Shown: piece after piece, positions 7,599-39,366 of the stretch
Position numbering within the stretch: position 1 is the first letter of the stretch
Layout of the letters: every line of letters starts with the position of its first letter
Source of the DNA: Candidatus Portnoybacteria bacterium
GTDB lineage: Bacteria > Patescibacteriota > Minisyncoccia > RBG-13-40-8-A
Reading direction: 5' to 3'
Length of the DNA stretch: 42,054 nt
NCBI GenBank assembly: GCA_014728535.1
Contig: WJLL01000053.1
Coordinates: forward strand, 1-42,054
The notes under the pieces: model-generated
What the model was told of the DNA's origin: nothing
The model's input: only the letters and a program-made list of their open reading frames with translations
Database searches by the model: none
Translations under genes and position numbers: made by a program

Positions 7599-7600
7599 AT

Positions 7601-15077: not shown

Positions 15078-15160
15078 AGGTCTGTTTGGCGGATACGCAG
15101 ACATGGGCGGATATCCATCTTCCTGTATCTGTGTATCCGAAAACAAAACGCCCAGACCTT
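15078..15160 (+). promoter_or_regulatory. structured, locally GC-rich 5' leader of pnp (candidate autoregulatory or processing element)
   Basis: Outer stem AGGTCTG (15078..15084) pairs with CAGACCT (15153..15159). A 12-bp stem pairs CGGATACGCAGA (15090..15101) with TCTGTGTATCCG (15128..15139, one G.U). The duplicated GGCGGATA (15089 and 15106) offers an alternative partner. Confidence 0.5.
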
Positions 15161-15192
15161 CTTATTTTAAATCTGTTTTCTTAAAAAGATTT

Positions 15193-17322: not shown

Positions 17323-17341
17323 TAAATTAAATTAAAAACAT

Positions 17342-18859: not shown

Positions 18860-19840
18860 TTAATAAATGTACCCTATAATTCTCCAATCATCTTTATGAA
18901 GAGTTCTTACTTTTTTAATACCATAACCAAGATGCATTTCAGATATAGTAACATATGGACCATTTACTGATTCTACATAAGCAACATGACCATAATATGG
19001 ATGTTCTCTAGTAGCTATAACAGCTCCAGGGCGAGGTTCTGATCCTGTAGCAAACCCGTATCTAGGCGCCTTATAAATCCATGTCTTTGCATGACCACTC
19101 CAAGGAATATATCTTCTCTGAGCAACATACCAAGTACATTGTCCCCAAGGAAATTGATGGCTTTGGTTTGAATAAGGCCTTGGAAAAGTATTAGCAGTAG
19201 CATATGTTCTTGTTGGATAATAATAAACAGGCTTTTCGCCATTAGGAATAATTATTTCCTGTCCAACAGCCAATTCTCCATCAGCAGGCAGACCATTAAA
19301 CTCAATGGTTTCTTCAAAGTCTCCATGGTATTTATCTACAATGCCTTGCAAGGTATCACCGCTTTTAACTGTATAACTAATACCAGAAACAGGAAGAATA
19401 ACCAACTCTTGTCCTGGCTTAATATAGTCCCAAGAACCAAGATCATTAGCCCACAATAGCGTATTTGTAGAAATGCCAAACAAAGCAGCTATCTTAGAAG
19501 GAACGTCTCCAGGCTTAACTGTATAAGTAATCTTAGCACTTCTTTCTTTTCCTAAATAAGGCAGCTCGCCAGAAGGAGAGTGAGTAGAAATATAAGCACT
19601 ACCAAGCAACACATTAGATGTTTCAAAATAACCCTCATTAACATAAACCTCTTCTATTATTGTTTCATTAGAATTTAAATACTCTGAAGCATAAACAAAA
19701 GATCCTCTCCTTATTATTTCTGTTTCTTCATCAACAGGATAAGTACCAAAACTATCAGCAATGGTTTGAGTTAATGTAACACAAACAAAGACAATAAAAA
19801 TAATTGCTACTGCCCTCCCAAAAGAGAGTTTTCGCAGCAA
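18860..19840 (-). CDS. peptidoglycan hydrolase: signal anchor, two LysM domains and a C-terminal CHAP domain
   Basis: LysM 1 is YTVKPGDVPSKIAALFGISTNTLLWANDL and LysM 2 is YTVKSGDTLQGIVDKYHGDFEETIEFNGL. CHAP Cys context is PWGQCTWYVA and His context is YGHVAYVE. The only in-frame start before the TM segment is TTG at 19840. Confidence 0.82.
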   Translation of the reverse strand: MLRKLSFGRAVAIIFIVFVCVTLTQTIADSFGTYPVDEETEIIRRGSFVYASEYLNSNETIIEEVYVNEGYFETSNVLLGSAYISTHSPSGELPYLGKERSAKITYTVKPGDVPSKIAALFGISTNTLLWANDLGSWDYIKPGQELVILPVSGISYTVKSGDTLQGIVDKYHGDFEETIEFNGLPADGELAVGQEIIIPNGEKPVYYYPTRTYATANTFPRPYSNQSHQFPWGQCTWYVAQRRYIPWSGHAKTWIYKAPRYGFATGSEPRPGAVIATREHPYYGHVAYVESVNGPYVTISEMHLGYGIKKVRTLHKDDWRIIGYIY

Positions 19841-22050: not shown

Positions 22051-22847
22051 TGAAAAATACAAAAGAAAAATTAAAACAATATAATATCAGGCCAACAAAA
22101 AAATTAGGCCAGAATTTTTTAACAAACAAAGATTCTTTAAATAAAATATTAAAGGCAATAGACCCAAAACAAGACGACACCATAATAGAAATTGGCCCAG
22201 GACTAGGAGCATTAACAAAGGAATTATCAAAAAAAGCAAAAAAAATAATAGCAATAGAAAAAGACAAAAGACTATACAATGTCCTCAAGCAAAATATAAA
22301 GAACAAAAACATAGAATTAATAAACAAGGACATACTAGAATATCAACCACCAAAAATAAAATACAAGCTGGCAGGCAACATCCCCTACTACATAACCTCC
22401 CCAATAATCAGAAAATTCCTAGAAGAAAAAAGCAAGCCAGAAAAAATAACCCTAACAACACAAAAAGAAGTAGCTCAAAGGATATGCCAACAACCACCAA
22501 AAACAAACCTTTTAGCAATATCTGTTCAATTCTATGCAATACCTAAAATAGAAGCACACATACCAAAAGAACATTTCTCGCCAAAACCAAAAGTAGATTC
22601 AGCAATAATAAATATAAAACCAAAAAAACAACTCCCTCTAAAAGAAAATCAAATAAAAGATTTTTTTAAATTAATTAAAATAGGCTTTTCCTCAAAAAGA
22701 AAAACCCTTTTAAATAATTTAAATTCAAAAATAAAAAAAGAAAAATCAGAAATAGAAAAAATACTAAAAAAATCAAACATAAAAAGCAAAGTCAGAGCAG
22801 AAAGCTTATCAATCCAAGACTGGCTAAATCTTTTCCACAATATATAG
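22050..22847 (+). CDS. rsmA: 16S rRNA (adenine1518/1519-N6)-dimethyltransferase
   Basis: KKLGQNFL, SAM motif IIEIGPGLGALT, and GNIPYYITSPI. There is a 1-nt TAATG overlap with pcrA. Confidence 0.9.
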   Translation: MKNTKEKLKQYNIRPTKKLGQNFLTNKDSLNKILKAIDPKQDDTIIEIGPGLGALTKELSKKAKKIIAIEKDKRLYNVLKQNIKNKNIELINKDILEYQPPKIKYKLAGNIPYYITSPIIRKFLEEKSKPEKITLTTQKEVAQRICQQPPKTNLLAISVQFYAIPKIEAHIPKEHFSPKPKVDSAIINIKPKKQLPLKENQIKDFFKLIKIGFSSKRKTLLNNLNSKIKKEKSEIEKILKKSNIKSKVRAESLSIQDWLNLFHNI

Positions 22848-22850
22848 TTT

Positions 22851-22876
22851 TTGACAATTTAATTTAATGGTATAAT
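22851..22876 (+). promoter_or_regulatory. candidate extended -10 promoter of the T4SS-like operon
   Basis: TTGACA (22851..22856) and TGGTATAAT (TGn plus perfect TATAAT at 22871..22876). The spacer is only 14 nt, so the extended -10 element would carry most of the recognition. It lies 24 nt upstream of the ATG at 22901. Confidence 0.5.
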
Positions 22877-22900
22877 AAAACCATAAAATCAAAAAGAACT

Positions 22901-23911
22901 ATGACCAAAGAAAAAGGTACAAAACTACCTATAGCAGCTATAGTGTCAGCTACATTTTTGGCTATTGCTTTAATAATTTTTATAGGAGCATATAGTGAAA
23001 AGGAGGCTTTTTCAAAAATAAATCTTTGGGGAGCAAAAGAAACAGAAATTGAATCAAGAAACAAAGACACAGACCAAGACGGATTAAAGGACTGGGAAGA
23101 AAACCTATATGACACAGACCCAACAAACCCAGACACTGACGGAGACGGCTATCTAGACGGAGAAGAAATAGATTCAGGCCACAATCCAACAGTAAAAGGG
23201 CCAGGAGATCAACTAGCATTCTATCCCCTTCCCCTAGGAGAAAAATACAATATCACCCAAAGAGTATTTACTGATTCGGAAAAAATAATAAAAAATTATT
23301 TAATCCAAAAAAGCCAATTCTTAGAAGATCACCCAGAAATAAACAGTCCAGAAGAATTCTTAGCGCAGATTGATCAAACAACACTAAATGAGCTTTTTAA
23401 AAGAGCAATACTAGAAAACCAAAAAGACTGGGCAGAAAGAGCAGAAAAAATACTGGAGGAATCTCCAGAAATATTTGAAATACAAGTTTCAGATCAAGAC
23501 ATATACATATCAGAAGACAATAGCGCAGAAAACAAACAAAAATATCTAAGCAAGCTATCAGAATACATAAACTCCCAAGACTTCTTTCTACAAGAGAGAA
23601 GTTTTTTGCTATTAAAAAACGATCTCCCTCAAAACAAATTCACCGACCTAGAAAACCTAATAAAAGAAAATGAAAGGCAAATAAGAAGACTAAGAGAAAC
23701 AGAAGTCCCCTCATCTCTAAAAGAAATACACAAAAAAGTATTAAAAATATCAATAACCCTAAGAAACATATTTATATCAGCCATAGATTATGATTCAGAT
23801 CCAATGAAGGCAGTAATAGGATTAAACAAAGCAAAGGACGCAATAAAGCTATGGGAAGCTCTATCCCCTCAAATACAAAAAGCTGCTGAAGAAAATAATG
23901 TAGAAATATGA
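22901..23911 (+). CDS. membrane-anchored protein with thrombospondin type-3-like Ca-binding repeats
   Basis: 336 aa. N-terminal TM (LPIAAIVSATFLAIALIIFIGAY), then DTDQDGLKDWEENLYDTDPTNPDTDGDGYLDGEEIDSGHNP (DxDxDG repeats). The rest is helical and unassigned. First ORF of the block. Confidence 0.6.
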   Translation: MTKEKGTKLPIAAIVSATFLAIALIIFIGAYSEKEAFSKINLWGAKETEIESRNKDTDQDGLKDWEENLYDTDPTNPDTDGDGYLDGEEIDSGHNPTVKGPGDQLAFYPLPLGEKYNITQRVFTDSEKIIKNYLIQKSQFLEDHPEINSPEEFLAQIDQTTLNELFKRAILENQKDWAERAEKILEESPEIFEIQVSDQDIYISEDNSAENKQKYLSKLSEYINSQDFFLQERSFLLLKNDLPQNKFTDLENLIKENERQIRRLRETEVPSSLKEIHKKVLKISITLRNIFISAIDYDSDPMKAVIGLNKAKDAIKLWEALSPQIQKAAEENNVEI

Positions 23912-26649
23912 AAAAATCTATTGCAATAATTTTAATTATCGCATTGACCCTGAGCCTAGGGATGAATTTTTTAATATTTAAGCCCAAAAAAGCAAATGCA
24001 GTATTAGGAATTGGAGACATAACAGTGGATATAGTAAATCAAGTAAAAGAGTGGGTCTTAGACCAGCTACCAAAAAGCCTGGCTAGGCATGGAATGGTAA
24101 GGATACAACAAGAAATAGCTAGATGGGCCCAAGGAGGATTTACCGAAGAAAACAAGCCCTTTGCAATGACTGACTGGAAAGCAGAGGTAAATCAAGCTTT
24201 AAACATTGCCTCAGGAAGGTTTATACAAGAATTTAATCTAACGCCTCTTTGTATGCCACTCCAAATAAGCATAGGAGAGCGCTTGGAGCTAAATAGGCCA
24301 TATTATTCTGTGCCCTATACTCAATATGCAGCCTGCACAATCGATCAAGTAGTAGATAATGCAGAAGCTTTTTGGGAAAACCCATCCATAAGCGTATACG
24401 GATGGGATACATGGAGTGCATTAATGAGGCCTGAAAATAATATCTTTGGAGCAACATTAATGGCAATAGAAAGAAGAGCAGAGATAGAGGAAGAAGAAGT
24501 AGAAGAAAAAGAAAAAGAATTCGAAGCAGGACAAGGATATATGAATGAAAATGAATGCATGGAAGAACAAGTATTAACAGAAGAACAATTAGAAGCGTGC
24601 AAAAACAAATGTAGAGAAGATGAGAAAGCACAAACTGACCCTATGTGGCTAGCAAGCTGCATATACAAATGCGATAGTCAAAACACAGGCATATGTCTTG
24701 AATATAGAACAACAAATGTAGGATCTAGCATTCATTCTTCTGTTGAAAAAAGCATAGGCTCAGACATTGACTGGCTAATAACAGCAGATGAAATTACTGA
24801 ATTATTAAATCTTGTTTTTTCAAGCCTCTTCTCTAAAATGATGCATGGCATAGGATTAACAGGAAGCTCTTATGCGGCCACAAGCGACATATCGAAACAG
24901 CAACTAGAATATGGCTATCATTCAGACTACAAAAAATCTTTAACATCAGCAGACATAAAAGAAGCAAGAAGAAATATATTAGAAAATATTCTTAATTCAG
25001 TTAAAAAGCTATCAACTACAAGCTATGAGTGTGACACAAAACACCAACTAGAGGGAAGGGTTTTTCAAGAAATGGTTGCAGAAATAATAGATCAAGAAGC
25101 CCAGCATCTATATTCTGTATCAGAAGGAGTAGATCTTAAACCAGACTTCCAAGTATTAGACAGCGCAGTTGCTGTAAACAACGGCTATGCAGTATATGGG
25201 CAAACATGGGATGATATTCCTTTAAGCAAGTACCCTCAAAAATGCCTAGAAACAACAGACACGCAGTGCAAAAATATAACAACAAGACTTCCATATGAGC
25301 TAAATATAAGCAACATAAACGATGAATGCTCAACCGGTTGTTTAGGAAGAATAAATGAATACAGAATAGAAGGATTCACGGACGCAGAGGCTGTAACAAA
25401 GGCAACACAAGATGGATATTGCTCAACAACAACAATAGGAACTGCCTGCATAGAAGGAGCTCATTTAATAAACAAAACAAAAAATAGATGCGAGGACTGT
25501 ATAACAAAAGCAGAAAGTATTTGCAGTACAAAAATAGGAGATGAAAGAGAGAGCTGTATAGAACTTTATTGCAGCAACTATGAAGATATATCAACATCAA
25601 TAACAAGCGCAGAAGACTTTTACAACCGCTGTGGTACTTCTATAACAAAAGAGGGCTGCTATACATGCCTAAAAGAGTACTTTATGCCTGCATATTATTG
25701 CTGGCAAATGTATGAATATGTAAACAGAGCCTTTATAAAATACCCAGCCCAAGCAAAAGAAGATTTATGGTGGGGAGGATATAATGACTTTGACTTATCA
25801 GACCCTTATTGTCCCGACAACAGAACTCCGTCAGACGCAAAAATACCAGTTGGTTTAGTTTGTAGAATATTGCCAAATTACAATATGAAAACTTTAACAT
25901 GTGAAGCGCTCTGTAATACAACAGAAGAAGAATTAAAAGACATAACAGACAATGAACCTCAAAATGTCGATTGTGCTGACGCAACAGGAGCTCCTTTGCA
26001 ATGGGATTTAGATGCCTTCCATCCAGGAGGACAATATTTAGATCATTTATCAACAAAAAGAACTAAGTGTTGTGGAGCGCTTACCGGCCACAACATATCT
26101 TTGTATTTAAAGTGCAGAGGCGAAGTAGGAGACTCGTCACAACAACACGAAACCCCAACCCCCTGCGAAGACTGGAACCCAAACTACAAAGGAGTGGGAG
26201 GACTAAGCAACATGTCTCTGGCATACCCAAATAGAAGCTTCAGCGAAGAGATATTAAAACCAGACGCTTACACTTCTGAAGCATATCTTGTTTCAATGAA
26301 AGATCCATACAGAGGAGCTACTCTATATATTAGCGAACCATATTGTGATGCTAAAAGAACATATGCTGATGGATCGGTTTCGGAATTCGATATAAATGGA
26401 GATGGGAAATTTAGTGACGAATTTGTAGATGATCCTAGATTTGAAGGACACTTTCTGGGCTATTGCAGAAACAAGACAACAGGAAACTACAAAAACCCAA
26501 CAGACATAATATGTAAAATAGATTTGTCAGAATATTCCTCTGCAGAAGAAGCATCAAAAGCTTGTCCAGAATTAGGAAATTACTCTGGAGGACTGTGGGG
26601 AACCATTCGCTACCCTAAAGGAGGAGTGGCTATATGCGTGCCAAAATAA
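23908..26649 (+). CDS. large secreted cysteine-rich orphan protein (913 aa)
   Basis: Signal/anchor MKKSIAIILIIALTLSLGMNFLIF. I counted about 38 Cys by hand, spread through the mature part. No family motif recognised. ATGA overlap with the upstream ORF. Confidence 0.6.
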   Translation: MKKSIAIILIIALTLSLGMNFLIFKPKKANAVLGIGDITVDIVNQVKEWVLDQLPKSLARHGMVRIQQEIARWAQGGFTEENKPFAMTDWKAEVNQALNIASGRFIQEFNLTPLCMPLQISIGERLELNRPYYSVPYTQYAACTIDQVVDNAEAFWENPSISVYGWDTWSALMRPENNIFGATLMAIERRAEIEEEEVEEKEKEFEAGQGYMNENECMEEQVLTEEQLEACKNKCREDEKAQTDPMWLASCIYKCDSQNTGICLEYRTTNVGSSIHSSVEKSIGSDIDWLITADEITELLNLVFSSLFSKMMHGIGLTGSSYAATSDISKQQLEYGYHSDYKKSLTSADIKEARRNILENILNSVKKLSTTSYECDTKHQLEGRVFQEMVAEIIDQEAQHLYSVSEGVDLKPDFQVLDSAVAVNNGYAVYGQTWDDIPLSKYPQKCLETTDTQCKNITTRLPYELNISNINDECSTGCLGRINEYRIEGFTDAEAVTKATQDGYCSTTTIGTACIEGAHLINKTKNRCEDCITKAESICSTKIGDERESCIELYCSNYEDISTSITSAEDFYNRCGTSITKEGCYTCLKEYFMPAYYCWQMYEYVNRAFIKYPAQAKEDLWWGGYNDFDLSDPYCPDNRTPSDAKIPVGLVCRILPNYNMKTLTCEALCNTTEEELKDITDNEPQNVDCADATGAPLQWDLDAFHPGGQYLDHLSTKRTKCCGALTGHNISLYLKCRGEVGDSSQQHETPTPCEDWNPNYKGVGGLSNMSLAYPNRSFSEEILKPDAYTSEAYLVSMKDPYRGATLYISEPYCDAKRTYADGSVSEFDINGDGKFSDEFVDDPRFEGHFLGYCRNKTTGNYKNPTDIICKIDLSEYSSAEEASKACPELGNYSGGLWGTIRYPKGGVAICVPK

Positions 26650-26655
26650 AGAATT

Positions 26656-28695
26656 ATGATTAATAAAACAAAAAAACTAAAAATATTTTTATTAACAGGA
26701 ATTACATCCTTTATAATTCCTAAAATTGTTTTTGCAGGTTGGTTTGGTCCTGGCTGGATAGTTGAATTATCTAAAGGAGTATTAAAATCATCAGCCGTAG
26801 GATTAGGACGGTCAATATTAACAGCAATTACAGAGATTTTTCTACATATTGTGTCTTTTCTTGTACAGCTATCTTCTTTTCTTTTTGAAGGAGCTCTTAA
26901 AATAAGTTTTTCAAAAAACTTGTATATAATAGAAGCAGGGTGGGAGGTGACTAGAGATATAGCAAACATGCTCTTCATTCTATTTCTTGTAATAATTGCC
27001 TTTGGAACAATTTTAAGAGTTGAAAATTATCAAGCTAAAAAACTTTTGCCGAAACTAATATTAATAGCTCTTTTGATAAATTTCAGTATGGTATTTGCTT
27101 ATGTTGTAGTTGACTTCACAAACATTACTGCCTCTTTTTTCATAAAAGACATAAAGGTAGGACCTCTTGTAGACAGCCTGAAGATGGTTAACGTTTTTTT
27201 ACCAATGGAATGTAGTGATATGGAATTAGATGAAGAAGCGCAAAGCAAGTGTGAATCGTACGTAGAAAGCCAGGGCCTAACTAATTTTTGGGGATTCATA
27301 CTGTCTATGATGTTTGGCACAATATTTCTTTTAATACTATCATTTGTTTTATTAGCAGGAACCGCTCTTCTTTTAGTAAGAACAATATTTATATGGTTTC
27401 TTGTAATACTAGCTCCTATGGCATTTATATGTTACATCCTTCCAGGTCTTAGAAAAAATTGGCAACAGTGGTTGAGCACATTTTTAAGATGGTGCATTTT
27501 CGCCCCAGCTTATGCTTTCTTTCTATGGCTAACAATAAAAGTAGCAATAGAAGGAAAAGCAAGAATGCTGACAAAAACACACAGCCCTGATTTTATGGGC
27601 GCAGGAACTATGGGTGCTCTTACAGAATCCCCTGCAATGCTTTTGCATTATATAATAATAATAGGAATGCTCATAGGATCCTTAATAGCAGCAAGCAAGT
27701 TTGGGATTTACGGATCAAACACATTAATGAAAGTCAGCAAAAAAGTAGGCAAGTGGGGGCTAAGAAAAGCAAGCAGAAAACCAGCTGATATAGCAGCAAG
27801 AGGAGTAGGTAGCGCAATGCAAAGAGTTGGACAATCAAAACTTTTTGGAGGAGAAGATACTCGCCGAGGAAGAGCCCTTATAACAAGAGGCAAGCAAATA
27901 TATCAAACGCCAGCAATGACCGAAGAAGCAAAAAGATTTAGAAAAAGAATGAATCAATTAACTGACGAAGGAAAGGTAAAGGCATTTAAACAAGCATCAG
28001 GAGGGTTGGCTATGGTAGGAGCAATGGAGTCACTAGACGCATTAAAGAAGAGCGAAGACAGAGAGGCAATCAACAAAGGAGTTGCTGTTTTAAGAGCAAA
28101 TAATAAGATAAAGGCAGCCAAAGATCTTGAAGAATTAAGATTTGATGCAATAGGAGACAAAGACAAGGCAATAAAGGCAATAACTAAGGGAATAGAAAAA
28201 GGAATTAATAAGTCATATAAAGCAGAATCTTTTAAAGACCAACAAGGCCAAATAGCCGCCAGACGCTTTGTTGAATCACTAGAAGACATATCAGAGGTTA
28301 TAGATAAAACAAAGGAGATGCCAAAAGCAACTCGAAAAGCAGAAGCAGAAGCAATAAAGCAAGAATTTACTGACTTTTCAGAAGAAGACATTAAAAGAAG
28401 AGCATCTTTCTATGCTGCAACAGGAAAATTATTAGAAGCATTTGAAGATCAAAGCGGAAACATCAATGAGTCAGAAATGAAAAAATTTGCAAACAAATTA
28501 AGACCAAAAGACTTTGCCAATATAGACATGAATGCCATTCCCGAAATAGCCGTCTCCATAACAGATCAAGGACTAGCAAGAGACATGGGCAAAGAATTAT
28601 CAGCAAAACAAAAATTAGAATTTGCCTCTAATTTCCAAAGTGATATTCGAAATGCACTAAAAGATGATAAAAATTGGAAGTCATATATTTCTTAA
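26656..28695 (+). CDS. polytopic membrane protein, VirB6/TrbL-like candidate, with a long hydrophilic C-terminal extension
   Basis: 679 aa. Multiple TM segments in the first ~370 aa with a TrbL/VirB6-like layout, then about 300 aa of charged helical sequence. The call rests on position next to PrgI/VirB4 and on topology. Confidence 0.5.
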   Translation: MINKTKKLKIFLLTGITSFIIPKIVFAGWFGPGWIVELSKGVLKSSAVGLGRSILTAITEIFLHIVSFLVQLSSFLFEGALKISFSKNLYIIEAGWEVTRDIANMLFILFLVIIAFGTILRVENYQAKKLLPKLILIALLINFSMVFAYVVVDFTNITASFFIKDIKVGPLVDSLKMVNVFLPMECSDMELDEEAQSKCESYVESQGLTNFWGFILSMMFGTIFLLILSFVLLAGTALLLVRTIFIWFLVILAPMAFICYILPGLRKNWQQWLSTFLRWCIFAPAYAFFLWLTIKVAIEGKARMLTKTHSPDFMGAGTMGALTESPAMLLHYIIIIGMLIGSLIAASKFGIYGSNTLMKVSKKVGKWGLRKASRKPADIAARGVGSAMQRVGQSKLFGGEDTRRGRALITRGKQIYQTPAMTEEAKRFRKRMNQLTDEGKVKAFKQASGGLAMVGAMESLDALKKSEDREAINKGVAVLRANNKIKAAKDLEELRFDAIGDKDKAIKAITKGIEKGINKSYKAESFKDQQGQIAARRFVESLEDISEVIDKTKEMPKATRKAEAEAIKQEFTDFSEEDIKRRASFYAATGKLLEAFEDQSGNINESEMKKFANKLRPKDFANIDMNAIPEIAVSITDQGLARDMGKELSAKQKLEFASNFQSDIRNALKDDKNWKSYIS

Positions 28696-28698
28696 ACA

Positions 28699-29106
28699 AT
28701 GCAATTTCAAGTACCACAATATACAGACATAGAAGATAAAGTAATAGGCCCACTAACCATAAAACAGTTTATGTATCTTTTGGTAGCAGGCATAATAATC
28801 TTTATCTTCTACAAACTTTTCAATTTCGCAATCTTTATTATCCTCTCGATCCCCATAGCTCTAATAGCTATAACATTTGCATTTGTAAAAATACATGATC
28901 AGCCTTTTTCTGTAATAGTAATTAATTTTTTTAGCTTTTTAAAAAAACCAGACTATTATGTCTGGAAAAGGCCAAAAGAAAAAGAAATATTGGAACAAGA
29001 AGAAGAGCCAAAAATAATAAAAAGGGAGGAGGCGCCAAAAAGACAAGAAAAAAAACCAAAAAGCAGGTTAAATGAATTAAATTGGAAAATAGAAATAAAA
29101 AAATAA
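28699..29106 (+). CDS. PrgI-family (VirB3-like) small membrane protein
   Basis: 135 aa. MQFQVPQYTDIEDKVIGPLTIKQFMYLL followed by two TM segments, as in the Gram-positive T4SS PrgI family. Sits immediately upstream of VirB4. Confidence 0.7.
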   Translation: MQFQVPQYTDIEDKVIGPLTIKQFMYLLVAGIIIFIFYKLFNFAIFIILSIPIALIAITFAFVKIHDQPFSVIVINFFSFLKKPDYYVWKRPKEKEILEQEEEPKIIKREEAPKRQEKKPKSRLNELNWKIEIKK

Positions 29107-29107
29107 A

Positions 29108-29737
29108 ATGGCAATAAATTTACCAAAAAAAGCTCCAGCAGTACAAGATTTTGTAGAAATAAAAGACATAAGAGACGGAGTGGCAATAACAAAAGACAAC
29201 AATCTAAGATCTGTTTGTATATGCTCAAGTATAAACTTCAGTCTCTTAAGTAAGGACGAAAAAGAAGCAGTAATTGCTTCATTTCAAGAATTTTTAAACT
29301 CTTTAGACTTTACTGTACAAATAATAATAGCATCTAGGCATTTTAAAATAGATTCATACCTAGACCAAATAAAAGAATTAGAAAAAAAACAAACAAATGA
29401 ATTATTAAGAATTCAAACACAGGAATATATAAGTTTCGTAGAAAGCTTTGTTGATTTTGCAAATATAATGAATAAGTCTTTTTATGTAATAATTCCCTTT
29501 GGAGCAATAGAGTCAAAAGAAGAATCAATACTAGAAAAAATACAAAATGTAATAGGATCAAAAACATCAAGCCAACAAAGCTTAAAAATGGAAAGATTTA
29601 GCCAATATAAGAAACAATTAGATCAAAGAGTGAATTTAGTAATAGAAGGACTCCAAGGAATAGGAGTAAAAGCCGTTCCTTTAAATGACGAACAATTAAC
29701 AGAGCTTTATTACGAATTCTACAACGTAGACAAATGA
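29108..29737 (+). CDS. VirB4-type ATPase, N-terminal domain encoded as a separate ORF
   Basis: 209 aa. VQDFVEIKDIRDGVAITKDNNLRSVCICSSINFSLLSKDEKEAVIASFQEFLNSLDFTVQIII matches the N-terminal region of Gram-positive VirB4/ConE/TcpF-like ATPases. Ends with TGA overlapping the next ATG. Confidence 0.65.
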   Translation: MAINLPKKAPAVQDFVEIKDIRDGVAITKDNNLRSVCICSSINFSLLSKDEKEAVIASFQEFLNSLDFTVQIIIASRHFKIDSYLDQIKELEKKQTNELLRIQTQEYISFVESFVDFANIMNKSFYVIIPFGAIESKEESILEKIQNVIGSKTSSQQSLKMERFSQYKKQLDQRVNLVIEGLQGIGVKAVPLNDEQLTELYYEFYNVDK

Positions 29738-31518
29738 GTTTATTCAAAAAGAAAAAACAAAAAACAGCAACCCCAGAAGGCTTGCCAGAAGAAGGCATGT
29801 CATTAATTGATGCAATAGCACCCTCTGCTTTGCAAATAACCTCAAACTACATTCAAATAGGAAATAAATTTGCTAAAACATTATTCGTAATAACATATCC
29901 AAGGTTTTTAACAGTAAGCTGGCTTTCTCCAATAATAAACACGGACAGAGTATTTAACATATCAATGTTTGTGCATCCAACAGACACAGGCATAATATTA
30001 AAAAAATTAAGAAAGAAATTAACTCAGATAGAGTCTCAAATAACAACAGAACAAGAAGAAGGAAAGGTAAGAAATCCTGTTTTAGAAACAGCCAGACAAG
30101 ACGTAGAATCATTAAGAGACAGACTCATCCAGGGAACAGAAAAGTTTTTCAAATATGGTCTTTATATAACAATATTTGAAGATTCTCCAGAAAAACTAAG
30201 AGAAACAGAAGAGCAAATGCTTTCTATGTTTGAATCAAAGATGGTATATATCAGACCAGCATTATTTCAACAAGAAAAAGGAATAAATTCAACTATACCT
30301 ATAGGAAAAGATAGATTACTAGTAACAAACTCAATGAACACAGAGCCTCTTTCCACAACATTTCCTTTTGTATCCTCTACTCTTTCATCAGATAAAGGAA
30401 TTCTTTACGGAATAAATCGCCACAACAATAGCCTAATAATATTTGATAGATTTTCTTTAGAAAATGGCAACATGGTCATTTTTGGGAAATCAGGCTCAGG
30501 AAAATCATATGCTGTAAAAGTAGAATTATTAAGATCACTAATGCTTGGAACAGACTGCATAGTCATTGATCCAGAAAATGAATATCAATATCTGGCAGAA
30601 ACAACAGATGGAGCATTCTTTGACATATCTCTTAGCTCCCAAGTCCACATAAATCCATTTGATATTTCACCTCCAGGAGAAGATGAAACAAACGAAGAAG
30701 TATATAAATCAAAAATAATGGATCTAGTAGGATTAATGAAGGTAGCCCTAGGAGACCTAACCCCAGAAGAAGACTCAATACTAGACAGAGCATTAAATGA
30801 AACATACGCATCAAAAGACATAACACCAGACTCTGATTTTAAAAAAATCACCCCTCCCCTGCTAGAAGATCTGCAAACAATACTAGAAAACATGGAGGGA
30901 GGAGATAGTCTAGCAAAAAGACTGCAAAGATATACAAAAGGAAGTTTTGCTGGGTTCTTAAACAAGCCAACAAATATAGATATAAACAAGCACTTGGTAG
31001 TATTCAGCACAAGAGACATGGATGATGAATTAAAACCAATAGCTATGTATCTTATTCTTCAATACATTTGGAATCTAATAAGATCCCAGCTAAAGAAAAG
31101 AATTATGGTAGTAGATGAAGCTTGGTGGATGATGAAATATGAATCAGGAGCATCATTCCTTCATGGAATAGCAAAAAGATGTAGAAAATATTGGCTAGGC
31201 CTAACAACAATAACCCAAGACATCCCAGATTTTATGAATTCTGATTATGGCAAGGCTATTATCACAAACTCTTCTCTTCAAATATTATTCAAGCAATCTC
31301 CTGCAACAATTGATGTAGTAAAAGAAACATTCAACCTTACAAATGAAGAAAAATATCTTCTTCTCCAAGCAGATGTAGGAGAAGGAATATTCTTTGCAGG
31401 AATAAAACATGCAGCTATAAAAGTAGAAGCATCATATACTGAAGACCAAATAGTAACATCCAGTCCTGAACAAATAATGAAAATCAGAGGAGCCAAGGAA
31501 GAGATAGAAGAAAAATAA
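29734..31518 (+). CDS. virB4: VirB4-family type IV secretion ATPase (middle and C-terminal ATPase domains)
   Basis: 594 aa. APSALQITSNYIQIGNKFAKTLFVITYPRFLTVSWLSPII is the typical VirB4 middle domain. Walker A is FGKSGSGKSY and Walker B is IMVVDEAWWMM, with TTITQDI near the C-terminus. Confidence 0.85.
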   Translation: MSLFKKKKQKTATPEGLPEEGMSLIDAIAPSALQITSNYIQIGNKFAKTLFVITYPRFLTVSWLSPIINTDRVFNISMFVHPTDTGIILKKLRKKLTQIESQITTEQEEGKVRNPVLETARQDVESLRDRLIQGTEKFFKYGLYITIFEDSPEKLRETEEQMLSMFESKMVYIRPALFQQEKGINSTIPIGKDRLLVTNSMNTEPLSTTFPFVSSTLSSDKGILYGINRHNNSLIIFDRFSLENGNMVIFGKSGSGKSYAVKVELLRSLMLGTDCIVIDPENEYQYLAETTDGAFFDISLSSQVHINPFDISPPGEDETNEEVYKSKIMDLVGLMKVALGDLTPEEDSILDRALNETYASKDITPDSDFKKITPPLLEDLQTILENMEGGDSLAKRLQRYTKGSFAGFLNKPTNIDINKHLVVFSTRDMDDELKPIAMYLILQYIWNLIRSQLKKRIMVVDEAWWMMKYESGASFLHGIAKRCRKYWLGLTTITQDIPDFMNSDYGKAIITNSSLQILFKQSPATIDVVKETFNLTNEEKYLLLQADVGEGIFFAGIKHAAIKVEASYTEDQIVTSSPEQIMKIRGAKEEIEEK

Positions 31519-31531
31519 TTAAAAACAAATT

Positions 31532-31969
31532 ATGGCTACAGTAACAGAGCAAGAAAAGAATAATCAGATTAGATTAAAGGAGCAAAGGGCAAAAGCAGAT
31601 ATAGAATCTGATGATAGCGGCATTACCCCAGCATCTATTATAACAGTAGCAGAGTTTGTGTTGGTCTTTGGAGCAGCAATAACGCTAGATTTAATAGACA
31701 TTTTAGACTTTACTGGCGTAGGAGCAATATTAGTAAGGTTTATAGACATACCAACACTGGGATTTATATGGCTATGGAGAATATTAAAACAACAAAAAGG
31801 CCCCAAAAAAGATCCTACGCTTAAACTTTTATCTGCTTTTCTTGTGGAAATAAGCCCTATAGGCCTTATTCCTTCATGGTCAATATTTGTCATATATGTT
31901 TTTTTCCAAGATACAAAAGTAGGCAAAAAAACTATATCAAAAGCCAAAAAAATTAAAACCAAAAAATGA
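31532..31969 (+). CDS. hypothetical small membrane protein
   Basis: 145 aa. Charged N-terminus, about 3 hydrophobic segments, Lys-rich C-terminus. No family recognised. Confidence 0.5.
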   Translation: MATVTEQEKNNQIRLKEQRAKADIESDDSGITPASIITVAEFVLVFGAAITLDLIDILDFTGVGAILVRFIDIPTLGFIWLWRILKQQKGPKKDPTLKLLSAFLVEISPIGLIPSWSIFVIYVFFQDTKVGKKTISKAKKIKTKK

Positions 31970-32730
31970 TTAAAAAAATACTAATAACATTATTAATAGC
32001 AATTTTTCCAATAACAGCATTAGCTCAAGTAGATTTTAATTTAGACAACATATTTGATACATATAATTTTGTGCCCTCTAGGGTAGAACTGCAAGGATAT
32101 CAAATGATTTGGTCAACAGACACATATACTCCTTATGAATACAAAGGAAGAGCGCTCCCTTCTATAGGAAGCGATGTAATTGTAGAAGCCATAGTCAACA
32201 CAAGTAATGGCAGCCCAAGTGATTTAAAATATAGTTGGTTTATAGATGATATATTTCAAAGAAGCAGATCAGGATACGGAAAAACAAAGCTAAAATTTAC
32301 TGCAACACGACCAGGAGGATCTTATCACTCCATAAGACTACAAATATTCAATGAAGACAGAACAATATTTCAAGAAAAAACAATAAAGATACCAATAGCA
32401 AGTCCTGAATTAAAGATCACCTCAAGCCCAGAAAACAATTATTTTTCCAGACAAGACAAAAGCCCTCTTGTTATCTTTGCTGACAAACAAAACGCTCTTA
32501 CAGCCCAACCATACTTTTTTAGCATAAAATCTCTAAGTGACTTATCTTTTGAGTGGATGTTTGAAGAAAAAAAGGTAAATTCATCAGAATACAGAGCAAA
32601 TGTATTAAATTTAAATATAACAAACAAAGACACAGAAGAAATAATTGAAAGAACATTAAATGTAAGAGTTTTTAATAAAAATAATCCAAACCAAGAAGTA
32701 TATAAAAATATAAATCTTCTTATAGATTAA
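31966..32730 (+). CDS. hypothetical secreted protein
   Basis: 254 aa. Cleavable-looking signal MIKKILITLLIAIFPITALAQ and a beta-rich composition. ATGA overlap upstream and TAATG overlap downstream. Confidence 0.55.
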   Translation: MIKKILITLLIAIFPITALAQVDFNLDNIFDTYNFVPSRVELQGYQMIWSTDTYTPYEYKGRALPSIGSDVIVEAIVNTSNGSPSDLKYSWFIDDIFQRSRSGYGKTKLKFTATRPGGSYHSIRLQIFNEDRTIFQEKTIKIPIASPELKITSSPENNYFSRQDKSPLVIFADKQNALTAQPYFFSIKSLSDLSFEWMFEEKKVNSSEYRANVLNLNITNKDTEEIIERTLNVRVFNKNNPNQEVYKNINLLID

Positions 32731-33548
32731 TGAAAAAATATAAAAACATAATTTTTATAATAATCTTCCTGGCGGTCTTAATTCCTCTAAAATTTTCTTT
32801 AGCAGAAACCAGCCTTTTATTAGACTACCCAGAAATAAAAGGAATTCAGCCAGGCACAGAAAGCAATTTGTCTGAAATAATAGCATACATATATTACTTT
32901 GCTCTTGGCATAGCAGGAGTAGCAGCCTTGGTTGTAATAATAATAGGAGCAGCTCAATATACTTTTTCAGCAGGAAATGAATCACAAATGAGTGATGCAA
33001 AAAACAGAATAATATCTGCTATATTAGGAGTAATTCTTCTTTTGGCAAGTGTCTTGATATTAAGAGTAATAAATCCAGATTTAATAGACATAGGGCTAAA
33101 CCAAGAACAATTAGGAATAGACTATAAAGGCAACATGGAATATGCCTGCGAACTAACAAACACCTCTGATTGTGACGGAACCTTTATAACAGGATGCGCA
33201 TCAACCTTAGAGGCCTGTGTTTCTTTTTGCAAAGAACAGGCGAAGAATTTAGGAGCAACAGCCTCGAAGTGTATAGAAAAAATAAAGGAAATGGGGTCTT
33301 GCCAAACAACATGTCAAGAATACTCGAAAAGAAGCTATAAATGCTCCATAAAAAATGTTCCTAGCTGCAAAATAGATGGAGGAAGTGGTCGCTATGTTCC
33401 ACAAAGCGCCTGTTATGAAACAAAAGATGAATGTAAGTCTTTTTGTAAGAATAAAGCAGAAGAATTAGGAGGAGAAATGGAAGCTTGTTATTGGGTTAAA
33501 ACTAAACGCAACTGTATAAATTACCCAACAGGTTGTGAGCAAGATTAA
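32730..33548 (+). CDS. T4SS pilin-like (VirB2/TrbC analogue) protein with a C-terminal duplicated cysteine-rich module
   Basis: 272 aa. Signal segment, then NLSEIIAYIYYFALGIAGVAALVVIIIGAAQYTFSAGNESQMSDAKNRIISAILGVILLLASVLILRVINPDL, the two-helix hairpin typical of the T4SS pilin family common in Patescibacteria. The last ~150 aa hold 16 Cys by hand count, arranged in two similar repeats. Confidence 0.72.
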   Translation: MKKYKNIIFIIIFLAVLIPLKFSLAETSLLLDYPEIKGIQPGTESNLSEIIAYIYYFALGIAGVAALVVIIIGAAQYTFSAGNESQMSDAKNRIISAILGVILLLASVLILRVINPDLIDIGLNQEQLGIDYKGNMEYACELTNTSDCDGTFITGCASTLEACVSFCKEQAKNLGATASKCIEKIKEMGSCQTTCQEYSKRSYKCSIKNVPSCKIDGGSGRYVPQSACYETKDECKSFCKNKAEELGGEMEACYWVKTKRNCINYPTGCEQD

Positions 33549-33563
33549 TTAATTTAAATAATC

Positions 33564-34733
33564 ATGAATACAAAGGTTAAAAAAATATTAATAATAGTAA
33601 TTGCAATACTAGTACTGGCTTTAGCAGCATTCTTAATTTATAATCTTCTCATAAAGCCAGAATCTTCAAAAGAACCAGAAGGAACTTCTGGCCTACCTGA
33701 ATCAGAAAAAGGAACAACACAGCCAAATCAAGAAGATGAATTTACTCCTCAGCCAGAACAAAGAGTGAAAACAATAAGCAGTGAGCCTGTAGCAAGCGCA
33801 ACACTAACTCAAGACCAAGACCAGATAATATATTACTCTCAAACAAGCGGAAATGTTTGGACAGCTAATTTTGATGGATCAGATTTAACAAAATTCTCAG
33901 AAGCAAGTCTAGAAAATTTATTAGATGTATTGTGGTCTCCAGACAAAACCAAAGTCATAACAATATTCCAAGACAATCTAGGAAAAATACAAAAATACTT
34001 TTACAGCTATGAAACAAAAAAGGCGCTCCCGCTAAGTGAATATATGAAAGAAATAGCCTGGTCACCTTCAAGCGACAGGATTGCCTATCATTATTATAAT
34101 AGCCTAAATGACATAAACACTATAAATCTATCTAATCCTGATGGATCTAATTACTCAACAATACTAAACACAAGAATGAAAGACATAGATGTAAAATGGC
34201 CAAAAGGATCAGAGGTATATATATATGAAAAACCCTCTGGCTTAGCTCAAAGCTCACTTTATGCTTTAAACACCTACACCAGAGGATTTACAAAAATACT
34301 CTCAGATATATATGGCTTTAGCCCAAAATGGTCTAAAGATGGAACAAGAATTCTTTATTCGAAAACAGACTCAAGAGGAGAAGATATAGAAATATATACA
34401 ACAAGTTCAATAGGATCTAATCCAGAATCAGCAGGAATATCAACTCTAGCTGAAAAGTGCATTTGGTCTCAAGATCCTAGAATGATATATTGCGCTATAC
34501 CAGAAAACATAGACAAGGCCAAAACCCTGCCAGACGACTTCTATAAAGGAACATTTCAATCAATTGATAAATTCTGGAAAATAAATGTAGAAACGGGAGA
34601 AAAAACACAAATCCTAGCTGACTATGAAATATTAGAAGTATATGATGCAACAAACTTATTTCTTTCCCCGGAAGAAGATTTCCTATTTTTCATAAACAAA
34701 ACAAATGGCCTCTTGTATTCTATAGAGCTATAA
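33564..34733 (+). CDS. membrane-anchored PD40/TolB-like beta-propeller protein
   Basis: 389 aa. N-terminal TM and a Pro/Glu/Gln linker, then repeated WSPD-type blades (VLWSPDKTKVI, IAWSPSSDRIAYHY, PKWSKDGTRILYS, CIWSQDPRMIYC). Confidence 0.65.
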   Translation: MNTKVKKILIIVIAILVLALAAFLIYNLLIKPESSKEPEGTSGLPESEKGTTQPNQEDEFTPQPEQRVKTISSEPVASATLTQDQDQIIYYSQTSGNVWTANFDGSDLTKFSEASLENLLDVLWSPDKTKVITIFQDNLGKIQKYFYSYETKKALPLSEYMKEIAWSPSSDRIAYHYYNSLNDINTINLSNPDGSNYSTILNTRMKDIDVKWPKGSEVYIYEKPSGLAQSSLYALNTYTRGFTKILSDIYGFSPKWSKDGTRILYSKTDSRGEDIEIYTTSSIGSNPESAGISTLAEKCIWSQDPRMIYCAIPENIDKAKTLPDDFYKGTFQSIDKFWKINVETGEKTQILADYEILEVYDATNLFLSPEEDFLFFINKTNGLLYSIEL

Positions 34734-34747
34734 AACAAAAAAAGAGA

Positions 34748-35878
34748 TTAAAAAGCCTTCTTATCAAGAAGGCTTTTGTTTATCACCATTAAGCCTAATA
34801 TAAGCCAAAATATAAAGGAAAGATCGTTTTTCCAATACAATGTATCAAAAAGCCCATGAATCAAAATATAGGCCATTCCAGACATCAATAACAAAGAAAT
34901 CTTTCCACCCTTAAAGCCCTCTCTATAAAACCACCACAATAAAATCAAAAAGCCAACAAAGCCTACAGTCCCTGCCTGAATTAAAAAGGCAAGATAAAGA
35001 TTGTGAGGCTGAGGAACCCCCCATTTAGGATAAGGAGGGAAATAGCTTTCAAAAGTGCCAGGGCCAATGCCTATAAAAGGATATTCTAAAAATACATCAA
35101 CTGCCTTTCCCCATATCAATAATCTTGCATCTATAGAAGAACTTCCTTCAGGCAAAATGTTTGATTTAAAGAAAAATAAACCCAAACAAATAATAAAAAA
35201 TAAAAGGCAAAAGAAAATAACTTCTTTTTTTCTTCCTTTTAAAAAATAAAGATAACAAAGACTAAAAACAAGAGAGCCTAAAACGCCAATCCAGGCACCA
35301 ATAGAAAAAGTAAGCAATAAAACAAAAAGATAAAAAATTACTAAAAAGAGCAAATAAGCTCTTTTTTTAAAATAAAACAATATTAAAGAAAAAATAAAAG
35401 CAGGAGCAATATACATTGCTAAAAAATTAGGAGAATTAAAAATGCCCTGCAATCTCCCCTGATGATTCCAGTCTCCAAACAAAGAAACAAGACCAACAAA
35501 AAAAGCAGAAAAAAGAAAAAAAATAATTACTTTAAATAATTTCTTTTTATCATCAACAATGCTTATTAAAACAAGAAAAAATAAAAAAGGAAGGATAAAC
35601 CACCCCTTCCATATACCAGCACTAACTCTAAAATTCCAAGAAAAAACAGTGCTTATGCTAACTCCAATAAAAAGAAACAATATTCCTAAAAACAATAATT
35701 TATTTTCCAAAAAAATCTTCTTTAAGCCGGCCCACCCTTTGCTTAAAAGCCACAAAACAAACAAAACTAATACAGAGATTTCTAAAAAATTAGTAGGAAT
35801 ATTAAAAACATCAAACCTTATTAAATACAAAGGAAAAAACAAAATAATAAAACAGAGGATATATAATAAGAAATTCAT
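34748..35878 (-). CDS. O-antigen ligase/polymerase-like (Wzy_C family) membrane protein
   Basis: 376 aa, polytopic, with a loop motif GRLQGIFNSPNFLAMYIAPAF typical of O-antigen ligase-like proteins. Confidence 0.65.
   Translation of the reverse strand: MNFLLYILCFIILFFPLYLIRFDVFNIPTNFLEISVLVLFVLWLLSKGWAGLKKIFLENKLLFLGILFLFIGVSISTVFSWNFRVSAGIWKGWFILPFLFFLVLISIVDDKKKLFKVIIFFLFSAFFVGLVSLFGDWNHQGRLQGIFNSPNFLAMYIAPAFIFSLILFYFKKRAYLLFLVIFYLFVLLLTFSIGAWIGVLGSLVFSLCYLYFLKGRKKEVIFFCLLFFIICLGLFFFKSNILPEGSSSIDARLLIWGKAVDVFLEYPFIGIGPGTFESYFPPYPKWGVPQPHNLYLAFLIQAGTVGFVGFLILLWWFYREGFKGGKISLLLMSGMAYILIHGLFDTLYWKNDLSFIFWLILGLMVINKSLLDKKAF
34751..34783. terminator. bidirectional terminator closing the T4SS-like operon, embedded in the 3' end of the convergent gene
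   Basis: AAAAGCCTTCTT-ATCA-AGAAGGCTTTT followed by GTTT. It overlaps the last codons (LLDKKAF) of the 34748..35878 gene. Confidence 0.7.
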
Positions 35879-38684: not shown

Positions 38685-39022
38685 TTATGTAAATCAGCTT
38701 TTTTAAATAATTCTAAAACCTCTTCTTTTATTTCATTAAAACTTTTATCAACAACCTGAGGCTTAGCAATAATAACCATATCAAGCCCACTTTTTATATT
38801 ATCCACCTCTTCTTTGACAATAGCCCTTAGCCTTCTTTTAATCTTATTTCTAACAACAGCTTTTTTAGAAACCTTTGAGCTTACAATAAATCCAAATCTT
38901 TTTTCATCAGATTTATTTTTTGCTTTTTTAAAAAAAACAAACCTTCCGGCTATTGTTTCCCCCTTCTCAAAAACATTCTGAAAGTCTTTCTTCTTTTTAA
39001 GCCTGTATTCTTTTTTTAACAT
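38681..39022 (-). CDS. rnpA: ribonuclease P protein component
   Basis: 113 aa, basic, with [25 protein letters not shown] (RNR-like motif). Lies between rpmH and yidD. Confidence 0.88.
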
Positions 39023-39168
39023 CAGACTGTTATTTTTTTCCTCTTTTTATTTCTTCTTCTACTCAAAACACGCCTTCCCGCTTTTGTTTGCATTCTTTTG
39101 CGGAAGCCGTGTCTTCTTTTTCTTTTTCTTTTTTTGGGTCTATAGGTTAAACCTTGTATTTTTGGCAT
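39022..39168 (-). CDS. rpmH: 50S ribosomal protein L34
   Basis: Absent from the ORF track because it is under 60 aa. Hand translation of the reverse strand gives [48 protein letters not shown] followed by TGA. This matches L34 and the stop overlaps the rnpA ATG (TGATG). Confidence 0.92.
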
Positions 39169-39366
39169 ATTATCTTATCTTAGTTTTTGTTTTTTGTATA
39201 ATTAAAGATTATCAATAAAAAATTATTTGGTCAAATTGGAAAATTTGTTTTTAAAATAATTCCACAACTCATCAACAATTTATTAACAAAAATAATTCTT
39301 GACTCTTATTTATCCACATTTTTCTTTGTGTTAAAATATTAAATAAGAACAAACTAAAGAATAACT
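39169..39366. other. rpmH-dnaA intergenic region: candidate oriC part / dnaA control region
   Basis: Very AT-rich. Perfect DnaA box TTATCCACA at 39310..39318, a TCCACA core at 39261, and an extended -10-like TGTTAAAAT ending at 39337, so the box sits about where a -35 would be. Confidence 0.6.

Follow-up and report, generated by a model that had tools for sequence, protein, structure and literature searches.

The DNA analysed here is a stretch of 42,054 bp, referred to as the window, which forms one complete contig of a metagenome-assembled genome (MAG) of Candidatus Portnoybacteria. Ten consecutive open reading frames (ORFs) on the + strand were listed between positions 22901 and 34733 and are numbered ORF1 to ORF10. 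An earlier note on this DNA had proposed that they form an operon for a relaxase-less type IV secretion system (T4SS), combined with a set of orphan proteins. The predicted operon and the signals that flank it are composed as follows.

22851–22876, + strand: promoter candidate, read from the sequence, with TTGACA at 22851–22856, a spacer of 14 nucleotides (nt) and an extended -10 element TGgTATAAT at 22868–22876
22901–23911, + strand: ORF1, 336 amino acids (aa), TSP3 protein, a conserved accessory component
23908–26649, + strand: ORF2 (locus tag GF387_02825), 913 aa, predicted exported protein with 38 Cys, a Patescibacteria-specific T4SS-linked component
26656–28695, + strand: ORF3, 679 aa, polytopic membrane protein, probable extended channel subunit of the VirB6/PrgH type
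28699–29106, + strand: ORF4, 135 aa, PrgI/VirB3-like protein with two transmembrane (TM) segments
29108–29737, + strand: ORF5, 209 aa, TrsD-like protein, corresponding to the N-terminal domain of VirB4 as a separate gene
29734–31518, + strand: ORF6, 594 aa, VirB4 ATPase of the CD1110 / MPF-FATA type
31532–31969, + strand: ORF7, 145 aa, small membrane protein with about three TM segments, no family
31966–32730, + strand: ORF8, 254 aa, signal peptide and exported domain, no family
32730–33548, + strand: ORF9, 272 aa, signal peptide, VirB2-like pilin core and a Cys-rich tail of 154 aa
33564–34733, + strand: ORF10, 389 aa, N-terminal membrane anchor, low-complexity linker and a probable beta-propeller (TolB/PD40-like)
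34751–34777, both strands: hairpin resembling a bidirectional intrinsic terminator, with a 12-bp stem, a 3-nt loop, an A-run before and a T-run after it

The ORF list and the junctions agreed exactly with the ten tightly joined genes of the earlier description. ATGA overlaps of 4 nt join ORF1 to ORF2 (at 23908), ORF5 to ORF6 (29734) and ORF7 to ORF8 (31966), a TAATG overlap of 1 nt joins ORF8 to ORF9 (32730), and the remaining intergenic gaps measure 6, 3, 1, 13 and 15 nt. A promoter and a strong terminator had been proposed to bracket the block. The extended -10 element of the promoter is real, but the -35-like hexamer, which begins four nt past the stop codon of rsmA (22845–22847), lies nearer to it than the canonical spacing of 17 nt. 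A consensus promoter scan missed this candidate because of the short spacer; as the scan yielded 38 promoter-like sites in the window versus 48 in shuffles, it provides no evidence either way. The terminator part of the proposal held, with a hairpin of sequence AAAAGCCTTCTT-GAT-AAGAAGGCTTTT that overlaps the last codons of a convergent Wzy-like ORF (34748–35878, minus strand). Judged by its structure and flanks, it is predicted to be able to terminate both the operon and this convergent gene. None of the ten starts, that of ORF1 included, is preceded within 20 nt by a Shine-Dalgarno-like motif; the leaders before these starts are A-rich. Topology prediction gave every product other than the ATPase a signal peptide, an N-terminal anchor or multiple TM segments, as would be expected of an envelope machine.

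Profile hidden Markov models (HMMs) were in agreement with the VirB2, VirB3 and VirB4 analogues that had been recognised by motif, with all three scores above the model cutoffs. ORF4 matched Pfam PrgI (PF12666) with 39.2 bits (cutoff 27), and ORF6 the NCBIfam model NF045971 for CD1110-family VirB4 with 379.9 bits (cutoff 325). For ORF6, the Pfam domain P-loop_TraG was also found (E = 9e-29), and its best solved relative is the C-terminal domain of Thermoanaerobacter VirB4 (PDB 4AG5, E = 3e-42). The Walker A motif (GKSGSGKS, aa 251, nt 30484–30507) and the Walker B motif (IMVVDE, aa 457, nt 31102–31119) are both intact. Matches of ORF6 to FtsK_SpoIIIE and SXT_TraD were marginal P-loop matches, and those to CedB (46.3 bits, cutoff 700; E = 2e-12) and CedD (30.7 bits, cutoff 600; E = 1e-7) remained far under the cutoffs. 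ORF5 aligned with positions 2–144 of the CD1110 VirB4 model and with positions 105–249 of the Mbov_0397 VirB4 model (NCBIfam); its match to TrsD/TraD (NF041427) had an E-value of 9e-6, below the model cutoff, and its orthologs are annotated as PF26593, TraC-like. The split of VirB4 into ORF5 and ORF6 is kept in all loci compared.

The tentative VirB6/TrbL assignment stays tentative. ORF3 is predicted to have some six to seven TM segments within aa 8–352, followed by a charged C-terminal domain of 324 aa. Its own best match was TraJ, the VirB6 analogue of Bacteroides (E = 0.004), and its ortholog in one relative (locus L005) scored 25.4 bits against TrbL/VirB6, just under the cutoff of 25.9. 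TrbL was the sole recurrent family in the ORF3 family, matched by four of 40 members. Profile searches with ORF3 and with the 40-member VirB6-like alignment against the PDB returned coiled-coil noise only. In 25 of 25 loci a gene of the ORF3 type immediately precedes PrgI-VirB4, and ORF3 is probably a VirB6-like channel subunit, judged by its topology, position and family matches.

The pilin encoded by ORF9 matched Pfam T4SS_pilin (PF18895) with 38.7 bits (cutoff 26.6) and the Mbov_0395 pilin-like protein of Mycoplasma integrative and conjugative elements (ICEs) with E = 6e-6 (NCBIfam). The two-helix pilin core (aa 45–118) follows the signal peptide, and aa 1–118 show a mean identity of 60% among relatives. 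The tails start after a conserved INPDL motif, range from 0 to 154 aa across relatives and can be aligned only poorly (27% in a forced alignment), while their number of Cys is always even (8, 10 or 16). The tail of ORF9, with 154 aa and 16 Cys, is composed of two copies of an 8-Cys module (internal duplication, E = 7e-7). Some close relatives have tail-less pilins of 122–124 aa, and one distant locus encodes a pilin of 299 aa. The tail is thus hypervariable and, as predicted from its Cys content, disulfide-rich. In F-type and VirB2-type pili both pilin termini are on the outside of the filament; if the same holds here, the tail would decorate the surface of the pilus. A relationship between this tail and the Cys-rich region of ORF2 was considered and rejected, as no similarity was found between them.

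To survey the cassette in other genomes, a profile of the ORF2 family was scanned against one genome per GTDB species, which gave six loci. As far as their contigs reach, these share the order pnp, a gene for a hypothetical protein, LysM-CHAP (minus strand), pcrA, rsmA, ORF1 to ORF10, wzy (minus strand) and wzx (minus strand). The same ten genes are present in the 626-kb contig OZ246412.1 and in one Logan contig, so that the synteny survey suggested in the earlier note gave eight relatives in total, all with order and site kept. Within the six GTDB loci, identity to the window was highest for ORF6 (75–77%), followed by ORF5 (64–67%), ORF4 (53–57%), ORF1 (48–55%), ORF10 (46–56%), ORF8 (40–47%), ORF7 (45–46%), ORF2 (29–52%) and ORF3 (30–36%). 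With the profile of a distant subfamily, which shares only the N-terminal domain of ORF2, 80 metagenome loci were recovered. A VirB6-like gene and PrgI followed in order in all 25 loci with at least 6 kb downstream, and VirB4 was present in 17 of the 18 with at least 8.5 kb downstream, with a median distance of 5.9 kb to the start of the ORF2-like gene. Upstream, pcrA and rsmA were found in 36/36 loci with at least 3.5 kb of sequence, and the LysM hydrolase in 25/26 with at least 7 kb. The VirB4 of the window is 48–60% identical to that of the distant metagenome loci and 29–35% identical to the best plasmid VirB4s (Firmicutes, Actinobacteria). Since order and site are the same across these relatives, the cassette is vertically inherited at one chromosomal site over a wide clade, which is the opposite of the behaviour of an ICE.

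Several local departures from this pattern were observed. In the sole exception among the 18 loci (L071, 16808–19268), the cassette breaks after TrsD and an arginyl-tRNA synthetase takes the place of VirB4. The virB4 ortholog of L001 (JAHJST010000017.1, 7594–11367) encodes 1,257 aa instead of the usual 595 or so, with an intein splicing domain and a LAGLIDADG homing endonuclease inserted just before the P-loop domain. Some relatives carry small unrelated genes inside the cassette with the order undisturbed (L004 15777–16157; L010 15767–16296, 17533–17892 and 20680–21798), namely a gene of the 23S_rRNA_IVP four-helix-bundle type, one for a YafQ-like toxin accompanied by a DUF6364 partner, and one for an AAA_14/DUF4143 ATPase. 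A gene for the apolipoprotein N-acyltransferase Lnt lies between rsmA and ORF1 in L005 (7281–8921), L007 (8307–9947) and L008 (2792–4432); it is not at this position in the window.

Domain scans, which took in the window ORFs of at least 100 aa, revealed no relaxase, coupling-protein, VirB11 or integrase domain, as had been claimed, and the contig is without a second FtsK/VirD4-type ATPase. These absences, like those given below, apply to the 42-kb contig. The insertion site is not variable and is identical in the eight close relatives and in dozens of distant loci. That the block is a chromosomal organelle and not an ICE is therefore strongly supported, and in line with this part of the earlier interpretation, every relative examined has the cassette at this one pcrA-rsmA site.

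The novelty of the system had been overestimated. A survey of 3,035 Patescibacteria genomes, with the Portnoybacteria included and classed under Paceibacteria, describes a monophyletic Patescibacteria clade of VirB4 nested in MPF-FATA (PMC12102498, Quinonero-Coronel et al. 2025). In that survey TrsD is the most abundant partner, PrgI/VirB3, VirB6 and VirB2-like pilins are found near virB4, relaxases are almost absent, homologs of the type IV coupling protein (T4CP) lie mostly far from virB4, and the site in Paceibacteria and Microgenomatia is near dnaA, dnaN, rnpA, ksgA and rpmH. By transposon sequencing, the cluster SEML1_0006-0019 of Southlakia epibionticum, pilins included, was found to be essential for epibiotic growth; recognisable coupling and relaxase proteins are missing from it (PMC10633639, Wang et al. 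2023). Patescibacteria T4SSs have been called a new branch of the T4SS superfamily in a 2025 FEMS review (PMC12857230), and their role completely unknown (PMC11665869). Relaxase-less, origin-proximal and pilin-bearing systems of this kind had thus already been published (PMC12102498, PMC10633639, PMC12857230), and the earlier interpretation agrees with these publications in nearly every point. By its gene content the operon studied here belongs to this Patescibacteria-clade T4SS and is not a new kind of system: it shares the MPF-FATA-affine VirB4, a TrsD-like protein encoded by its own gene, PrgI/VirB3, a VirB2-like pilin and, probably, a protein of the VirB6 type, as well as the lack of a relaxase or T4CP near virB4, and the site by ksgA (rsmA), rnpA, rpmH and dnaA (PMC12102498). 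It differs by a single pilin gene, against arrays of 2–11 in Saccharimonadia and Microgenomatia, and by the Cys-rich tail of 154 aa on this pilin. In S. epibionticum peptidase and lysozyme genes lie immediately 3' of virB4, whereas the LysM-CHAP gene of the window is found on the opposite strand, 3 kb before the operon. The five accessory proteins (the TSP3 protein, the ORF2 family, ORF7, ORF8 and the propeller) are not named in the sections of PMC12102498 and PMC10633639 that were considered.

Among the conjugative T4SSs of the MPF-FATA type (Prg/Pcf of pCF10, Trs of pGO1, the CD1110 family of CTn2 and Mbov_0395/0397 of Mycoplasma ICEs), likeness was found in the presence of PrgI, in ORF6 passing the CD1110 VirB4 model, in the resemblance of ORF5 to TrsD of pGO1 and in that of the pilin to Mbov_0395. 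The order VirB6-like, VirB3, VirB4 also corresponds to prgH-prgI-prgJ in pCF10. Features of those systems that are missing from the contig are a relaxase, a T4CP, a recognisable VirB8-like protein (PrgL/TcpC) and a PrgB-type adhesin; the present system keeps one chromosomal place and is not mobile, and the N-terminal domain of ORF2 is absent from 72,556 plasmids. The uptake systems ComB of Helicobacter and Ced of archaea are likewise free of relaxase and T4CP, with a VirB4-type ATPase and a membrane channel at their centre, and archaeal Ced, too, uses a pilus. Here, in contrast, CedB and CedD were matched at the generic ATPase level only, and no CedA or ComB-specific component was detected among the window proteins.

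The accessory half of the operon consists of ORF1, ORF2, ORF7, ORF8 and ORF10. For ORF2, ORF7 and ORF8 no family was found in Pfam, NCBIfam or PHROGs, and a phage link for the accessory ORFs was rejected, since none of them had a PHROG match. ORF1 has a membrane anchor (aa 6–33), an all-helical domain of 220 aa and two Ca-binding TSP3 repeats, DTDQDGLKD (aa 56) and DTDGDGYLD (aa 78), which scored 31 bits against Pfam TSP3_bac (cutoff 25). Its family comprises at least 512 homolog clusters of uniform length, about 335 aa, and it is always the first gene of the cassette among close relatives. An AlphaFold2 (AF2) model of ORF1 (pLDDT 75, pTM 0.72) showed no match to PDB folds, with Plasmodium RH5 as the best at E = 0.7. 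Two roles for ORF1 were tried and dropped: that of an extracytoplasmic chaperone of the PrsA/SurA type, suggested by a weak PDB profile match to the trigger-factor C-terminal domain (E = 0.0026), had no fold support, and for a VirB5-like helical tip protein the model gave no supporting fold match.

ORF2 was found to be made up of a conserved N-terminal domain (about aa 30–320) and a lineage-variable, Cys-rich C-terminal part. Its profile had 3,491 matches at E ≤1e-3 among 1.84 billion representatives, and 2,257 at ≤1e-10; only about 20 of the matches are full length, the others covering profile positions 1–320 only. For the N-terminal domain there is no Pfam model and no sequence relative in the PDB, the plasmid search, by tblastn, gave no match, and distant loci have the domain at the corresponding place of the cassette. 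Judged by these searches, it is a large uncharacterised family, absent from plasmids and locked to the T4SS slot. The C-terminal part in this clade is a Cys-rich helical core with the 38 Cys, many of them invariant, while other members of the family have C-terminal PKD, Ig-like, TIG, EF-hand or lectin-like domains. The AF2 model of ORF2 had a pLDDT of 63, with a confident (80–95) helical core at aa 320–740, and Foldseek found no match to it in the PDB (best E = 1.4). Profile searches with ORF8 and with the ORF2 N-terminal domain against the PDB gave coiled-coil noise only.

Orthologs of ORF7 in L001 and L004 are 45–46% identical to it, and the gene was undetectable in distant loci; ORF8 could be recognised in 12 of the 17 long loci from distant relatives. 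The idea that ORF8 contains two repeated Ig/PKD-like domains was rejected, the self-comparison not being significant (E = 0.067). ORF10 matched TolB (TIGR02800) with E = 1e-7, far under the model cutoff, and three of its orthologs gave weak matches to several propeller families; it is a probable beta-propeller of the TolB/PD40-like kind. As judged by gene order, each of the five orphans is a constant part of the cassette in this lineage.

The operon is flanked by housekeeping genes on both sides, and the domain scans agreed here with the flanks given previously, pcrA-rsmA and wzy-wzx-jag-yidC-rnpA-rpmH-dnaA. On the left lie genes for ClpP, trigger factor, H+-PPase, NusA, a MacB/HlyD ABC exporter, the CCA enzyme, three tRNAs and S15, and nearest to the operon those for polynucleotide phosphorylase (PNPase), the LysM-CHAP hydrolase (minus strand), PcrA/UvrD and RsmA. 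On the right Wzy, Wzx, Jag, YidC, RnpA and RpmH, all on the minus strand, are followed by DnaA. The rsmA gene is directly upstream of the operon, and rnpA, rpmH and dnaA are located 4–4.6 kb downstream of it. An Rfam scan of the window found the three tRNAs and nothing else. The rpmH gene (48 aa, minus strand) lies within 39022–39367, just upstream of dnaA, and a perfect DnaA box, TTATCCACA, was located at 39310–39318 in the rpmH-dnaA spacer. GC skew tracks the coding strand without a clean origin switch; proximity to the origin therefore rests on the rpmH-dnaA synteny and the one perfect DnaA box. If the origin is here, transcription of the T4SS operon runs toward it and head-on to replication. 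Elsewhere in the window, a 374-aa ORF at 13064–14188 (minus strand) has a strongly negative local GC skew and no Pfam or PHROG family, and an operon for a MacB-type ABC exporter at 6333–9953 (minus strand) encodes an FtsX/MacB_PCD permease, an ABC ATPase and an HlyD-like adaptor, in an organism thought to be monoderm.

Two neighbours of the operon bear on its possible function. A LysM-LysM-CHAP peptidoglycan hydrolase (18860–19840, minus strand; Pfam LysM and CHAP) lies 3 kb upstream, outside the operon and outside the coordinates of the block in the earlier description. Its gene keeps its position in all relatives, and in distant relatives the same slot is held by LysM+Peptidase_M23 (L010 5245–6207; L011 4283–5167), which would fit a conserved requirement for an enzyme that opens the wall. 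VirB1-like hydrolases have been associated with virB4 specifically in Paceibacteria (PMC12102498). By its domains and place the enzyme may be a candidate VirB1-like wall opener, with its position kept but outside the operon; enzymes of this sort also take part in routine wall turnover. The PNPase gene is located 5.6 kb upstream of the operon, and its position is kept in relatives; together with the following 446-aa ORF, which has no family, it occupies 15103–18682 and is syntenic with the T4SS cassette. This synteny, which may be mere housekeeping order, is of interest beside a preprint on a cultured patescibacterium (10.64898/2026.06.21.733656) that describes tubular structures to the host, uptake of host RNA and a central role of PNPase, and leaves the uptake mechanism open.

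Taken together, the operon very likely encodes a chromosomal, non-conjugative T4SS of the Patescibacteria, derived from monoderm MPF-FATA machinery and working at host contact. This starts from what the analysis has shown: which proteins make up the core, that the products are predicted to be membrane-bound or exported, how tightly the genes are packed and that they occupy a fixed chromosomal site. The system would descend from monoderm conjugation machinery of the MPF-FATA type and would have lost its link to DNA mobilisation. In the proposed scheme PrgI (ORF4) would anchor the cytoplasmic VirB4 ATPase (ORF5 and ORF6) at the membrane, where the ATPase would act with the VirB6-like channel subunit (ORF3); together with PrgI they would then pull the pilin out of the membrane and assemble it outside the cell into a tube or pilus, decorated on its outside by the variable disulfide-rich tail. 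The five accessory proteins, ORF1, ORF2, ORF7, ORF8 and ORF10, would most likely make up the structures that span the wall and touch the host. ORF2 would join a widely conserved, machine-associated N-terminal domain to a variable surface domain, the variable pilin tails and ORF2 C-terminal domains may tune host specificity, and the nearby LysM-CHAP hydrolase may open the wall. The apparatus would serve attachment and the transfer of macromolecules at host contact, as effector export or uptake of host material, and not conjugation.

Some points weigh against this interpretation. A T4CP or relaxase could sit on other contigs of the MAG, and VirD4-like genes are found away from virB4 in most Patescibacteria genomes (PMC12102498), so that the earlier description of a minimal, T4CP-less system stands for this contig and not beyond it. 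The VirB6 matches are sub-threshold, and for a VirB8-like scaffold no family or PDB sequence match was found with ORF1, ORF7 or ORF8; the model of ORF1 is all-helical, not the NTF2-like fold of the VirB8 scaffolds PrgL/TraM/TcpC. As no solved structure resembles the folds predicted for ORF1 and ORF2, their roles are argued from topology, position and conservation. Pilus assembly, the role of the apparatus and the direction of transport in this lineage are what we infer from its parts.

Against a non-conjugative system stands the view that the operon is a decaying or domesticated ICE that still moves DNA with a relaxase and coupling protein encoded elsewhere. The nearest named relatives of VirB4, TrsD, PrgI and the pilin are indeed conjugative elements of Firmicutes and Mycoplasma ICEs, and T4CP-like genes are frequent elsewhere in Patescibacteria genomes (PMC12102498). 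The site between rsmA and wzy/yidC is, however, constant in every relative while VirB4 identity falls from 77% to 48%, and the 42-kb contig is without integrase, relaxase or att-like features. In the same survey only 109 relaxases were counted in the 3,035 genomes, seldom near virB4, and in S. epibionticum the T4SS is essential and the T4CP homolog is not (PMC12102498). An ICE is therefore considered very improbable.

Accepting the non-conjugative T4SS, the question becomes what it does at the host. As a more specific version of this interpretation, the apparatus may be an import machine, in which the pilus or tube penetrates the host envelope, the VirB4-VirB6 core draws in host RNA or DNA, and PNPase and kinases turn the imported nucleic acid into nucleotides. 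Uptake systems need no relaxase or T4CP, ORF6 is weakly similar to the archaeal DNA importers CedB and CedD, and the PNPase gene keeps its place upstream of the cassette. The preprint cited above (10.64898/2026.06.21.733656) also points in this direction with its host-RNA uptake, tubular structures and PNPase role, and T4SSs have been proposed as a candidate route of nucleotide acquisition (PMC11665869). Points against it are that VirB4 ATPases in general resemble CedB, that the PNPase synteny may just be a conserved gene order, that the preprint itself leaves the uptake mechanism unresolved, and that no nucleic-acid-binding domain was found among the cassette proteins. Import is accordingly regarded as possible but tentative, and the injection of effector proteins that would manipulate the host bacterium or make it permeable, in the manner of pathogen T4SSs, was rated about equal to it. 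Effector export is the commonest non-conjugative role of T4SSs, has been speculated on for Saccharibacteria (PMC10633639, PMC11665869) and can do without a T4CP, as Ptl and the Brucella VirB system do (PMC12102498). No candidate effector, chaperone or T4CP was found in or beside the cassette, though, and the accessory ORFs all have Sec-type signals or anchors and would thus reach the surface without the T4SS, which counts against export. Rated lower, and unlikely, is an organelle for adhesion only, in which a VirB2-type pilus with variable tails tethers the cell and nothing is transported. The hypervariable disulfide-rich pilin tails and the PKD, Ig-like, TIG or lectin-like C-termini of some ORF2-family members would suit it, such variability being typical of adhesins under selection for host specificity. 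These organisms already attach by type IV pili (PMC12857230), however, a full VirB4/VirB6/VirB3 translocon is retained, and the tail-less pilins of close relatives imply that the tail is not essential to the machine, which counts against a role in adhesion only. The most far-reaching proposal is that the accessory half is an undescribed module for host penetration and specificity (the ORF2 family and the tailed pilin) on a conjugation-derived core, the whole being an import conduit for host RNA or nucleic acid that feeds a PNPase-based nucleotide economy; at present this is held to be rather improbable.

For the gene set as a whole, no experimentally assigned function was found. The Patescibacteria account for a substantial part of bacterial diversity, their way of life is the exploitation of other cells, and the T4SS is essential in the one species tested. 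The locus described here is a clean example of the Paceibacteria type, with all ten genes, the five orphans included, fixed and vertically inherited. Beyond the literature, it adds the fixation of the orphans in the cassette, the family of the ORF2 N-terminal domain and the hypervariable, predicted disulfide-rich pilin tails. The ORF2 N-terminal domain and the Cys-rich pilin tails offer handles for experiments on the host specificity and the cargo of these systems.

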